A stretch of 64,000 bases of DNA from an uncultured Chloroflexia bacterium (lineage in GTDB: Bacteria; Chloroflexota; Chloroflexia; QHBQ01; JADMIH01), in assembly GCA_963811305.1 (NCBI GenBank), contig CAWEQU010000008.1, positions 1,422 through 65,421 on the forward strand. The letters run 5' to 3'. Positions 17,540 through 20,168 of the stretch are shown one piece after another. Within the stretch, counting starts at the first letter, position 1. The number at the start of each line of letters is the position of its first letter. The translations under genes were made by a program, and so were the position numbers. Below the pieces are notes generated by a model. The model had not been told where the DNA came from, searched no databases, and worked only from the letters and a program-made list of their open reading frames with translations.

Positions 17540-18127
17540 TCAGGCTCCCGGGGAAAGGGGTTGAACGGTTTGCTCGATTGCTCCGAAAATGGAATGGCCC
17601 GACTTGTCCTTCATCTCGATGCGCACGGTGTTGCCGAATTGCATGAAGGGTGTGGAAGGCTTGCCCTTTGCAAGGGTTTCGATCATGCGGATTTCGGCGA
17701 TGAAGGAACAGCCACGGCCGCCTTCGGCCACGGGCTTTCCTGGTCCGCCGGAGGCGTCGCGGTTGGAAACGGTTCCTGAACCGATGATGGTTCCAGCACC
17801 GAGGGCGCGGGTTTTGGCGGCATGGGCAATGAGCGCTGGAAAATCGAAGGTCATGTCCACGCCCGCCTCGGCGCGGCCAAAGGGCCTGCCATTGAAATCG
17901 ACTTGCAGGGGCAGATGCAGCCTGCCGCCATCCCAGGCGCTGCCCAGTTCATCGGGTGTTACGGCAACGGGCGAAAACGCCGAAGATGGCTTGGACTGGA
18001 AGAAGCCAAAGCCCTTGGCCAGTTCCGCCGGAATGAGATTGCGCAAGCTCACATCATTCACCAGCATGACAAGACGAATGGCCTGGCCTACGAGTGAGAT
18101 GAGAAAGGCAGTGGCTCTTTCCTTCAC
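17540..18127 (-). pseudogene. Fumarylacetoacetate hydrolase family protein, C-terminal ~190 aa only (5'-truncated)
   Basis: It begins mid-domain (IRLVMLVNDVSLRNLIPAELAKGFGFFQSKP...). A stop codon lies immediately upstream in frame, and the gene ends at the foldback hairpin. Confidence 0.8.
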
Positions 18128-18171
18128 ACATCAAAATGAGCGCCAGAGGCGCTCATTTTGATGTGTGAAGG
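18121..18171. repeat. Perfect foldback hairpin (24-bp arms, 3-nt loop) at the compositional junction
   Basis: ccttcacacatcaaaatgagcgcc aga ggcgctcattttgatgtgtgaagg. I checked base by base that the arms are exact reverse complements. No T-tract follows. Confidence 0.95.
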
Positions 18172-18269
18172 TGAATTTAATCTATTTTGGTGATGTGGCG
18201 CTCAGACAGCTATGCTATCATAGCACTGTTCGGGCATATCCCGACAACACAAAATGAGGAGTTTGCTTC

Positions 18270-20168
18270 ATGGACGAGTCATCGGACAAAAGCCTCTGGC
18301 GTGGTGCCAAGCCTGTACACCGCAGGCTGCGTGGATACGCCTTTGACCCAAGCCTCTCTGTCCAGCTGGACACAGCCGTCGTAAACCAGGTTATCTTCAA
18401 GGTTGACTGGGAAGATAATCTCGGCAAGGGGCCGGTAGGCGAATACCTCGAGGTCGTCGATTACGACCCTGCCAGCGACTGCTTTTATGAGCCGGTGTCT
18501 CTGAACCATCATTACGTACTGGCGCAGGATGGTCTCACCCCTTCCGAGGGGTCCCCCCAATTCCACCAGCAGATGGTGTACGCGGTAGCGATGACTACCA
18601 TCCAGAATTTTGAGAGCGCCCTCGGCAGGAAGGCTTTCTGGTCGCCGGGACGCCATAGGAGAGATAAATTCATCCAAAGGCTTCGAATATATCCACACGC
18701 GCTAAGGGAAGCGAACGCCTATTATAGCCCCGACAAGGTAGCGCTCCTCTTCGGCTATTTCCCTGCGTCCTCAGACAACTCAGAGACACATCACCCAGGG
18801 GGTGTAGTCTTTACCTGCTTATCTCACGACATTATCGCGCATGAGACCACCCATGCTCTTCTCGATGGGATGCACCGACGGTTCAACGAGCCAAATCACC
18901 CCGACGCTCTTGCGTTCCATGAGGCATTCGCCGATATCGTAGCCCTTTTCCAGCATTTCAGCTTCCCGGAGGTCTTGCGCCACCAGATAGCCAAGAACCG
19001 GGGCGATCTCGCCAGCCAGAGCTTGCTCGGTGAGCTGGCGCAACAGTTTGGTGAGGCGATTGGAAACTATGGGGCTTTGCGCGATGCCATAGGCCGCGTC
19101 AATCCCAACACCAAGCAATGGGAGCCGCTTACCCCCGATCCACAAGCCTATAACGTCGTTATGGAGCCTCACCAGCGAGGCGCTATCCTTGTCGCTGCCG
19201 TATTTGACGCTTTTATCTCTATATACAAGAGCAGGGTAGCGGACCTGTTCCGCATCGCCACCAGCGGAACAGGCGTCTTGCCCGCGGGCGCGATCCACCC
19301 CGACCTCGTAAACAGGCTTGCCTCCGAAGCAGCCAAGAGCGCCCAACAGGTCCTCACAATGTGCATCCGCGCCCTTGATTATTGCCCCCCGGTGGATATC
19401 ACTTTCGGAGATTACTTGCGGGCGCTAATCACGGCGGACTCAGACCTCGTGCCATATGACGACCTGGGCTACAGGGTAGCTTTCATAGAGGCGTTCCGGC
19501 GACGCGGCATCTATCCAAGAGATGTGCGCACGCTTTCGATGGACAGCCTGCGCTGGCCCCAGGCGAAAGGCTACAGCAATATCTTCGAGCCAATTGCCGA
19601 AGAGCTACGTGAATTCATGGAGAACGCCAGGTATCTAACTGACCGCCATGAATCTTTCAACGCTACAAGAGAAATGCGAATCGAGCTTCACAAGCTGATC
19701 CAGCAGGAAGTTCTGGTTGGACATTGGAGAGGACTGGAGGAGCTAACCGGACTAGCACTTAAGCCAGACACGAAAATGGTGGGCTTAGATCTCGATGAGC
19801 AGGGGATACCTGTTTTCGAGATTCATTCCTTGAGGTCAGCGCAACGGGTCGGCCCAGATGGGAACGCCCTGAATCAAATCATAATCTCAATTACCCAAAG
19901 CAGAAAGTTTCTGCTCGATCCGGCCTCCCCAACGGGTGGGTCTAAGTTCTTCTTCCGGGGCGGCTGTACGCTAATCCTCGACCTTAATAACCTTGACCTG
20001 CGCTACCGTATCGTTAAGAGCATCGATGACGATGAACGTTTAAACGCGCAAGCACAGTACAGGCAAGAGGTGCGCGGGAACTCGCTATATGCGACGTACT
20101 TTGATGAAAACGATCCAGATGAGCCATTTGCCATCATGCACCGTGAATCCGGGAGCGGAATGGCATGA
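18270..20168 (+). CDS. Cytoplasmic gluzincin (thermolysin-like HExxH...E) metallopeptidase, 632 aa
   Basis: HETTHALLDGMHRRFNEPNHPDALAFHEAFADI is an HExxH followed 22 residues later by ExxxD, as in M4 enzymes. AGGAG lies 7 nt before the ATG. I see no signal peptide or TM segment. Confidence 0.7.
   Translation: MDESSDKSLWRGAKPVHRRLRGYAFDPSLSVQLDTAVVNQVIFKVDWEDNLGKGPVGEYLEVVDYDPASDCFYEPVSLNHHYVLAQDGLTPSEGSPQFHQQMVYAVAMTTIQNFESALGRKAFWSPGRHRRDKFIQRLRIYPHALREANAYYSPDKVALLFGYFPASSDNSETHHPGGVVFTCLSHDIIAHETTHALLDGMHRRFNEPNHPDALAFHEAFADIVALFQHFSFPEVLRHQIAKNRGDLASQSLLGELAQQFGEAIGNYGALRDAIGRVNPNTKQWEPLTPDPQAYNVVMEPHQRGAILVAAVFDAFISIYKSRVADLFRIATSGTGVLPAGAIHPDLVNRLASEAAKSAQQVLTMCIRALDYCPPVDITFGDYLRALITADSDLVPYDDLGYRVAFIEAFRRRGIYPRDVRTLSMDSLRWPQAKGYSNIFEPIAEELREFMENARYLTDRHESFNATREMRIELHKLIQQEVLVGHWRGLEELTGLALKPDTKMVGLDLDEQGIPVFEIHSLRSAQRVGPDGNALNQIIISITQSRKFLLDPASPTGGSKFFFRGGCTLILDLNNLDLRYRIVKSIDDDERLNAQAQYRQEVRGNSLYATYFDENDPDEPFAIMHRESGSGMA

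Follow-up and report, generated by a model that had tools for sequence, protein, structure and literature searches.

An abrupt junction between alphaproteobacterial and Chloroflexia DNA within one deposited record, very likely a chimeric contig

Gene content and composition of the two segments

The window, meaning the whole 64,000-nucleotide stretch of DNA that was analysed, consists of two segments that meet near 18.1 kb. The segments and the features around their meeting point are listed below, with the related contigs designated L001 to L091.

1..18088: Hyphomicrobiales, Aestuariivirga-like chromosomal segment (alignment to L004/L005, protein clusters, FAH matches)
16898..17539, minus strand: maleylacetoacetate isomerase (GST family), intact (Pfam GST_N and GST_C; homologues so named)
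17540..18088, minus strand: FAH-family gene, 3' part only, with residues 159-340 of 340 (BLASTP, Pfam, L004/L005 alignment)
18088..18090: join; the alphaproteobacterial match stops at 18088 and the right-hand match runs from 18089/18090
18089..64000: Chloroflexia chromosomal segment (collinearity with L088, protein clusters, families)
18090..18269, plus strand: native Chloroflexia intergenic DNA preceding the 632-aa gene, with an RBS-like GAGGAG (aligned with L001, L088 and L091)
18121..18171: perfect hairpin, arms 18121-18144 and 18148-18171 (24 nt, 100% complementary), 3-nt loop
18270..20168, plus strand: first right-hand gene, 632-aa protein with an HExxH motif (orthologues in L001, L088 and L091)

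The left segment carries purK', rpsU, ung, a BTAD/TPR regulator, NAD-GDH and a QueA-like gene, as well as SDR, SoxR, SBP56, creatininase, maleylacetoacetate isomerase and FAH' genes. The right segment encodes the HExxH protein, an MBL-fold protein, ETF-alpha/beta, PurM, PurN, MglB and an MglA-like GTPase, and further PurH, a MutS-like protein, CofC, CofD, CofE, three LLM enzymes and two PNPOx enzymes. A preliminary description of this DNA had assigned the left side to the Alphaproteobacteria on the strength of rpsU (S21, with a Gly/Ala tail), NAD-GDH and SoxR, and the right side to the Chloroflexota from an F420 biosynthesis set, LLM and PPOX enzymes and mglBA. All of these were found, the last as mglB with the MglA-like GTPase, and purK and ung could be added on the left. 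Housekeeping genes stand on both sides: the left segment has rpsU, purK and ung, and the right one has purM, purN, purH and ETF. Matches to the left side were named Aestuariivirga, Mesorhizobium, Phyllobacterium and Rhizobium, and right-side protein clusters at 90% identity or more include NCBI 'Chloroflexia bacterium' MAG proteins.

Under a third-order Markov model the signal for a compositional change peaked at 18.1-18.2 kb, where the log-likelihood gain was 980 against at most 169 in shuffled sequences, and the 64-kb window gave no second change point. Gene-level taxonomy changes at the same point, so that the single abrupt inter-phylum switch described earlier near 18.1 kb was confirmed. 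The two halves also differ in their tetranucleotide profiles, which correlate at only 0.745. The claim that GC-rich third codon positions mark the left side failed: GC3 is about 0.61-0.77 on left and right alike and was dropped as a discriminator. None of the 24 heptamer arrays lies to the left of 22762, in keeping with their reported absence from the left side, while the RIME-like ccctctccc...gggagaggg hairpins reported there in the plural came down to one (9771-9801).

The join lies between adjacent bases inside an FAH-family gene

Blastn matches of four independent alphaproteobacterial contigs (L002, L003, L004 and L005) all terminate at window position 18088. In L004 and L005 the last 49 nt up to this position are 100% identical to the window, and divergence is complete from there on; beyond 18088 all four contigs run on into the FAH N-terminus, hmgA and HPPD. 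From the other side, a three-way alignment showed right-hand homology to begin at 18089 or 18090. The join is blunt, and any inserted sequence amounts to at most the T at 18089. A reading of this T as the trace of a dA-tail in a ligation chimera was set aside, the T being just one base. The break sits at 18088|18089, not at the palindrome with which it had been said to coincide; it is 32 nt to the left of the hairpin, at the point where the relatives' alignments end. Comparison of the printed sequences of both sides with those of their relatives showed no microhomology at 18088/18089. The only repeats there are of 12-14 nt and at chance level, and the break has no flanking direct repeats. Searches of the boundary returned neither a tRNA nor an Rfam element, and integrase and transposase families had 0 matches among the ORFs screened on both sides. 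The genes flanking the join are the GST and FAH' genes on the left and those of the HExxH and MBL proteins on the right.

The FAH-family gene is truncated by the join. The listed 195-aa ORF at 17540-18127 on the minus strand begins with 13 codons of unrelated right-hand DNA and covers just positions 82-213 of 214 of Pfam FAA_hydrolase (PF01557). Complete relatives are 340 aa long, combine PF18288 with PF01557, and carry the names Aestuariivirga, Mesorhizobium and Phyllobacterium. The fragment is 94% identical to residues 157-340 of one of them (P0121, BLASTP), and it departs from the full architecture in lacking PF18288 and residues 1-158. The loss of an N-terminus noted previously is real, but its extent was put at about 140 codons; 158 are missing, and Gly159 is the first residue retained.

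Each segment is collinear with its own relatives

Positions 4840-18088 of the window are collinear with L004 (a 918-kb contig) and L005 (a 306-kb contig) over about 13.3 kb at 96.3% identity. Between the left segment and L005 dN/dS is 0.11, and 225 of the 301 substitutions (75%) fall at codon position 3. Judged from this substitution pattern, the segment is one that split from L005 under purifying selection. The pattern points to a living alphaproteobacterial chromosome, as opposed to a decaying insert or raw-read noise. The exact RpsU sequence clusters with 'Aestuariivirga sp.', and in a plasmid search with the left side Rhizobium chromids reached only about 75%, over the QueA-like/SDR/SoxR block. 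No complete alphaproteobacterial gene lies closer to the join than that of maleylacetoacetate isomerase. Three left-hand genes (those for GDH, SBP56 and the BTAD regulator) are disrupted by frameshifts, and a GT2 gene is frameshifted on the right side. Single-base frameshifts occur both in the window and in L004, as they do in long-read assemblies. Frameshift density was tried as a coverage proxy (about 3-4 broken genes per 18 kb on the left, at least 1 per 46 kb on the right) and, although suggestive, rejected because the events are too few and the measure is not rigorous.

The right segment is collinear with L088 and L091 over 18173-34866, at 85-94% nucleotide identity in the case of L088, and the alignments of both start at 18173/18174. 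Its PurN, ETF-alpha and MglB fall into the clusters (at least 90% identity) that contain the 'Chloroflexia bacterium' MAG proteins. A plasmid search with the right side gave no match. The 632-aa protein matched no Pfam family; its orthologues in L001, L088 and L091 are likewise 632 aa long, and that of L001 is 92% identical. From about 18090 rightwards, the hairpin included, the window matches L001 (ENA ERZ1758302), a contig of an independent soil assembly from a close relative of the right-hand organism. Positions 18090-18172 are given to the right-hand genome from one relative, L001; L088 and L091 differ there. Further upstream, L088 and L091 have a SnoaL-family gene or an ETF-alpha fragment and in no case an alphaproteobacterial gene; in L001, too, the preceding DNA is not alphaproteobacterial. 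The 18090..18269 region of the window has been severed from its own upstream gene. Two metagenome contigs with ETF-alpha relatives (L042 and L043, 78-83% amino acid identity) are without the 632-aa/MBL gene pair and are therefore uninformative on what natively precedes it.

The hairpin is present in an independent assembly

Recomputation reproduced the exact palindrome at 18121..18171 with its 24-bp arms, 3-nt loop and missing T-tract. Its centre is at 18146, and the sequences flanking it are unrelated to each other. Folding of 18090-18200 gives -49.1 kcal/mol (z = -6.8). By chance the arm would be expected to recur 0.01 times, and no other site was found in the window. The hairpin pattern with a free loop had no match in the genome-contig or metagenome-contig collections. 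The hairpin was identified in L001 by alignment: there it lies upstream of the orthologous gene, with an identical 19-nt arm core and a different loop, and its flanks are homologous to the window on both sides. In L001 it is positioned 75 nt downstream of a 72-aa ORF and is followed by a T-rich stretch. Other long perfect hairpins are scattered along the right side, at 58208-58260, 32177-32205 and 56223-56251, and one is found at the equivalent site in L091.

The preliminary description had offered a foldback artefact as one explanation of the junction. In such an event the right arm would be a false reverse complement of the left one, made at a contig end. The perfect arms, the short loop, the want of a T-tract and the adjoining junction are what it might leave, and foldback (inverted-duplication) chimeras from amplification or sequencing libraries resemble this locus in combining a suspicious junction with a nearby inverted repeat that is perfect and has very little loop. 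The locus differs from them in having arms of 24 nt only, flanks that are not inverted copies, and a junction 32 nt away. Perfect hairpins of a similar kind also occur at the three other right-hand sites and in L091, and the L001 hairpin, with its identical core, different loop and homologous flanks, refutes the proposal, which we regard as having practically no chance of being correct. Presence with homologous flanks in L001 marks this sequence as native Chloroflexia intergenic DNA. By sequence comparison, the hairpin is an ordinary native stem-loop of the Chloroflexia genome with no part in the join.

Three other identities were considered for the hairpin and rejected: a repeated mobile element (the arm has a single site in the window and the pattern is absent from both contig collections), a hairpin telomere or resolvase site (the flanks are not mirrored in the window or in L001), and an attC-like or IS200/IS605 end (no transposase or integrase is nearby, and the flanks are not mirrored). 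It probably serves the upstream gene, lost here, as a terminator or an RNA-stability element. Like intrinsic terminators and other intergenic stem-loops, it lies between genes, 3' of one in L001, and its stem is very stable and GC-clamped at the loop; several hairpins likewise lie between right-hand genes. It differs from intrinsic terminators in its unusually long stem (24 bp) and in having no U-tract in the window, where a terminator consensus scan gave no call.

Origin of the join

Exact proteins of both sides (UDG and GST from the left; the 632-aa protein, ETF-alpha, PurN and MglB from the right) are found on one deposited 520,616-bp NCBI/ENA record, of which the window covers 64 kb; the alphaproteobacterial part takes up positions 1-18088 of the window. 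The join was thus not made when the window was cut, and the suggestion of concatenated contigs is ruled out as far as the builder of the window is concerned. Concatenation without N before deposition, during scaffolding, binning or submission, would account for a blunt join with no shared sequence and for an alphaproteobacterial side that stops at a random intragenic point, as contig ends do. Against it, the collection lists the record as one 520,616-bp contig, the sister records resemble plain assembler contigs, and scaffolders normally insert N; we consider it a quite improbable source of the join. It is also an artefact, and it differs from the explanation favoured here solely in the step at which the pieces were joined. 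The sister contigs bear names of the form 'contig_N', which we take to be Flye style.

The junction is very likely an assembly artefact, that is, a chimeric contig from a long-read metagenome assembly, and we infer that the join arose in library preparation or assembly and not in the cell. Up to the break, each side keeps the gene order of its relatives, and beyond it these continue differently; this strongly supports an artefactual join of two phyla and in this respect upholds the earlier proposal of a chimera. Hyphomicrobiales DNA would have been broken at random within codon 158/159 of the FAH-family gene, and the broken end would have been joined end to end with a piece of Chloroflexia DNA that begins in intergenic sequence 180 nt upstream of the 632-aa gene. 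This would most likely have come about through a chimeric long read, or through an overlap that a long-read metagenome assembler wrongly accepted. The hairpin would lie 32 nt from the join by happenstance, its upstream gene having been removed by the break. The break is, however, at most 32 nt from one of just four long perfect hairpins in the 46 kb on the right; breaks placed at random would fall so near a long hairpin in roughly 0.5% of cases, a figure that counts against chance placement, although the hairpin came to notice only once the junction had. Chimeric contigs that combine phyla are on record for long-read metagenome assemblies ('Assemblies of long-read metagenomes suffer from diverse errors', bioRxiv 10.1101/2025.04.22.649783). 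The chimeras of that study share the signature seen here, a sudden shift in composition and gene taxonomy within one long contig in which chromosomal genes from two phyla adjoin; they were detected by read clipping, whereas the present case rests on comparative evidence from relatives.

The other reading is of a real and very recent inter-phylum transfer, completed by illegitimate end-joining beside a break-prone hairpin. Long palindromes are known hot spots of breakage and recombination, and a very stable one stands 32 nt from the break; the join lies inside one deposited contig; and the GDH, SBP56 and BTAD regulator genes are frameshifted, as useless foreign genes might be, so that under a true transfer these frameshifts would be the first steps of decay. 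The left side, however, is 96% identical to free-living alphaproteobacterial contigs at a dN/dS of 0.11, which would make the transfer extremely recent, and its composition shows no amelioration at all. Core genes such as rpsU are part of it, its boundary is without microhomology, mobile-element gene, tRNA or repeat, and no second boundary occurs within the 64-kb window. Like frameshifts in the right-side GT2 gene and in the sister contig L004 make those of the left side resemble assembly errors. Genomic islands and integrative elements also show an abrupt compositional boundary and a truncated gene at the edge, but this junction has no integrase, tRNA, att-like direct repeats or cargo-like genes, and the 'island' would be core chromosome (rpsU, purK, ung, GDH) 96% identical to that of free-living strains. 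Such a transfer, which would entail the capture of at least 18 kb of Aestuariivirga-like core chromosome by a soil Chloroflexia bacterium, or the reverse, is judged very improbable.

Consequences for the use of the record

The junction is almost certainly no feature of any organism and matters little as biology. It is of consequence as a data-quality flag, because DNA of two phyla stands fused in a public 520-kb record that probably belongs to a metagenome-assembled genome. Taken at face value, the record would lead to false inferences of horizontal transfer and to wrong taxonomy or metabolism, for example by ascribing homogentisate-pathway and NAD-GDH genes to a Chloroflexia genome, and it would also distort estimates of completeness and contamination. 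Other findings in the window need to be assigned by organism, positions 1-18088 to the alphaproteobacterial one and 18089-64000 to the Chloroflexia one; the latter genome alone is to be credited with the hairpin, the heptamer arrays and the F420 genes.

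Composition and origin of the two sides

Tetranucleotide profiles of the left and right sides of the window were correlated at only 0.745, and in the comparison proposed by the preliminary description every 4-kb segment grouped with the side it came from. Change-point scanning under a third-order Markov model peaked at 18.1-18.2 kb (gain of 980 versus at most 169 with shuffled bins) and found no second change point inside either part. GC3, which had been put forward as a marker of the left side, was similar on both sides. Heptamer tandem arrays had been described as absent from the left, and all 24 (24/24) did lie at or beyond 22762. 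The genes recognized were as follows.

Genes on the two sides of the junction
Left side: purK end; rpsU with a Gly/Ala tail; ung; BTAD/TPR regulator; large NAD-GDH; QueA-like gene; SDR; SoxR; SBP56; creatininase-family gene
Right side: ETF-alpha and ETF-beta; purM, purN and purH; mglB; MglA-like small GTPase; MutS-like gene; CofC, CofD and F420 ligase; three luciferase-like monooxygenases; two PNPOx-family proteins

The assignment of the left genes to Hyphomicrobiales-like Alphaproteobacteria was supported by database matches and collinearity. The exact RpsU sequence was present on 189 contigs, and its cluster included proteins named 'Aestuariivirga sp.'. Homologues of the fumarylacetoacetate hydrolase family (FAH) and isomerase proteins carried the names Aestuariivirga, Mesorhizobium, Phyllobacterium, Rhizobium and Ensifer, and the QueA-like/SDR/SoxR block showed about 75% nucleotide identity to Rhizobium chromids. 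Four independent contigs carried the native alphaproteobacterial locus.

Contigs with the native left-side locus
L002, ENA, 35 kb
L003, Logan, 10 kb
L004, ENA and NCBI, 918 kb
L005, ENA, 306 kb

The gene order HPPD, hmgA, FAH, maleylacetoacetate isomerase was shared by all four, and from ung through FAH L004 and L005 ran collinear with the window, with 96.3% identity across 13.3 kb. Changes relative to L005 were mostly synonymous (dN/dS 0.11), with 225 of 301 substitutions at codon position 3. Raw-read noise and a decaying insert were ruled out for the left side by these two values. The left side is, by these comparisons, normally evolving alphaproteobacterial chromosome from a strain conspecific with L004 and L005.

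The Chloroflexota-like character ascribed to the right side was likewise upheld. The PurN, ETF-alpha and MglB clusters (at least 90% identity) included NCBI 'MAG TPA ... [Chloroflexia bacterium]' proteins, and the exact MglA-like protein was present on six other contigs. Two relatives, L088 and L091, were collinear with window positions 18173-34866 and 18174-26799, respectively, at 85-94% nucleotide identity. The 5' neighbor of the gene for a 632-aa protein is an ETF-alpha fragment in L088 and a SnoaL-family gene in L091, and no alphaproteobacterial genes were found upstream of it in either. The right side is, as judged by these matches, Chloroflexia chromosome.

The break point and the adjacent hairpin

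Three features define the region of the join.

16898-17539, intact maleylacetoacetate isomerase gene adjoining the FAH fragment
17540-18127, minus strand, ORF of the FAH fragment; Pfam FAA_hydrolase match to model positions 82-213 of 214 only
18121-18144 and 18148-18171, inverted repeat; 24-nt arms, 100% complementary, 3-nt loop

Complete FAH relatives have 340 aa and contain both PF18288 and PF01557; the fragment aligns at 94% identity with residues 157-340 of the top full-length relative. The first 13 codons of the listed 195-aa ORF are foreign DNA that includes part of the left hairpin arm, and the first FAH codon kept is Gly159. The N-terminal truncation reported earlier therefore stands, with 158 codons lost rather than about 140. 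The end of alphaproteobacterial homology was placed at base 18088 because the blastn alignments of all four contigs (L002-L005) stop there. Over the final 49 nt up to this base, identity to L004 and L005 is 100%; the bases after it are unrelated. Right-hand homology starts at 18089 or 18090, that of L001, an ENA grassland-soil contig, reaching about 18090. The join is thus blunt, has no microhomology and lies 32 nt left of the hairpin, which does not itself mark the junction as had been claimed.

The palindrome was as first described, exact and lacking a 3' T-tract, and a consensus terminator scan made no call there. Its arm occurs at a single site within the window even with three mismatches allowed (chance expectation of a second copy, 0.01), and the predicted fold of 18090-18200 has an energy of -49.1 kcal/mol versus -26.9 ± 3.3 for shuffles (z = -6.8). 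The same hairpin is present in L001, 5' of an orthologue of the 632-aa protein (92% identical), with a 19-nt core of both arms identical and a different loop. In that contig a 72-aa ORF lies 75 nt to its 5' side, a T-rich stretch comes after it, and homology flanks it on both sides. Further long perfect hairpins, which are typical of the right-hand genome, were found.

58208-58260, right side, intergenic; perfect, 26-nt arms, 1-nt loop
32177-32205 and 56223-56251, right side, intergenic; two hairpins with identical 14-nt arms, palindrome GTAGGGGCGTGCCG
L091, about 1670-1715; a perfect hairpin unlike that of the window (21-nt arms, 3-nt loop) at the equivalent site upstream of the 632-aa gene

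The window hairpin is, on the evidence of L001, part of the right-hand genome. Since it is native in L001 and hairpins of this kind are a regular feature of right-hand DNA, the earlier reading of a foldback artefact is refuted. The 46 kb on the right contain just four long perfect hairpins, and the break lies within 32 nt of one of them, a closeness expected of a random break in about 0.5% of cases. It could be a coincidence, because the junction came to notice first and the hairpin later. Alternatively, a strong palindrome could make the DNA around it prone to breakage, which would be compatible with a chimera formed in the library as well as with a real event.

Nature of the join

Exact-sequence look-ups placed proteins of the left side (UDG, isomerase) and of the right side (632-aa protein, ETF-alpha, PurN, MglB and several others) on one 520,616 bp record at NCBI and ENA. 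The join is therefore present in the deposited sequence, which excludes window construction as its source. Sister contigs are named 'contig_N', which we take to be Flye-style naming. Single-base frameshifts disrupt genes at several sites.

2167-3807, BTAD/TPR regulator; broken into three ORFs, against an intact 646 aa in L004 and in L005
8315, extra T in NAD-GDH; interrupts the Bac_GDH_CD domain at position 400 of the profile
12505, extra C in SBP56
54475-55753, GT2 glycosyltransferase on the right side; in two pieces

L004 has a GDH frameshift of its own, independent of that in the window. The frameshifts are probably residual long-read indel errors and fit a long-read assembly that retained them. 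Inter-phylum chimeric contigs have been documented in long-read metagenome assemblies (bioRxiv 10.1101/2025.04.22.649783), and the diagnostic signs described there are those of this contig.

Both sides are core chromosome, collinear with their respective relatives up to the break and different from them beyond it, and composition switches once. The chimeric join favored by the preliminary description is thereby borne out in the main, and we infer that the junction is artefactual and almost certainly no real biological feature. A real event would require a Chloroflexia cell to have acquired, very recently, at least 18 kb of unameliorated core chromosome from an alphaproteobacterium. Nothing at the boundary suggests biological integration: no tRNA or Rfam element was found there, repeats were at chance level only, microhomology was lacking, and the ORFs screened on both sides gave no integrase or transposase family matches. 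Such a capture is considered highly improbable. With the junction read as an artefactual join, the window should be divided there, positions 1-18088 being alphaproteobacterial and 18089-64000 Chloroflexia; the deposited record deserves a flag, beyond which the biological interest of the junction is low.

Other features of the window

On the left, the QueA-like/SDR/SoxR block lies between two direct copies (9597-9756 and 12148-12307, 91% identical) of a stretch of about 160 nt, the second copy being a duplicated NAD-GDH 3' end directly after soxR. The block recurs with other neighbors in L006 and on the short contigs L007 and L008 at 97-99% identity, and looks like a mobile module. Several RIME-like ccctctccc...gggagaggg hairpins had been reported on this side; the window has a single one, ccctctccc(N13)gggagaggg at 9771-9801, 22 nt past the GDH stop codon.

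On the right, the heptamer arrays (22762-57154) have 3.4-9 copies, are often 100% perfect and differ in unit from array to array (for example 23755-23802, 48011-48074 and 54305-54345). Some form adjacent pairs, and none lies left of 18 kb. They are reminiscent of cyanobacterial heptamer STRR repeats. Within a 563-aa ORF (33693-35384, minus strand) with weak amidase-like matches, the hexamer GTAGAT is repeated perfectly 14.5 times (34087-34173) and would encode a dipeptide repeat.

The gene pair at 18270-21724 encodes the 632-aa HExxH protein (18270-20168, no Pfam family) and a 500-aa MBL-fold protein, the N-terminus of which is similar to LmuA and other defence-associated MBL domains (PADLOC). 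Relatives of the 632-aa protein are scattered over Acidobacteriota, Bacteroidota, Planctomycetota and Chloroflexia. The pair is tandemly duplicated in the Chloroflexia MAG L011 (3748-7026 and 10001-13422), the ETF relatives L042 and L043 are without it, and in L088 it is preceded by a copy of the ETF-alpha 3' end (320-476; 94% identity to window 21762-21918). It may be a mobile cassette with an accessory or defence role.
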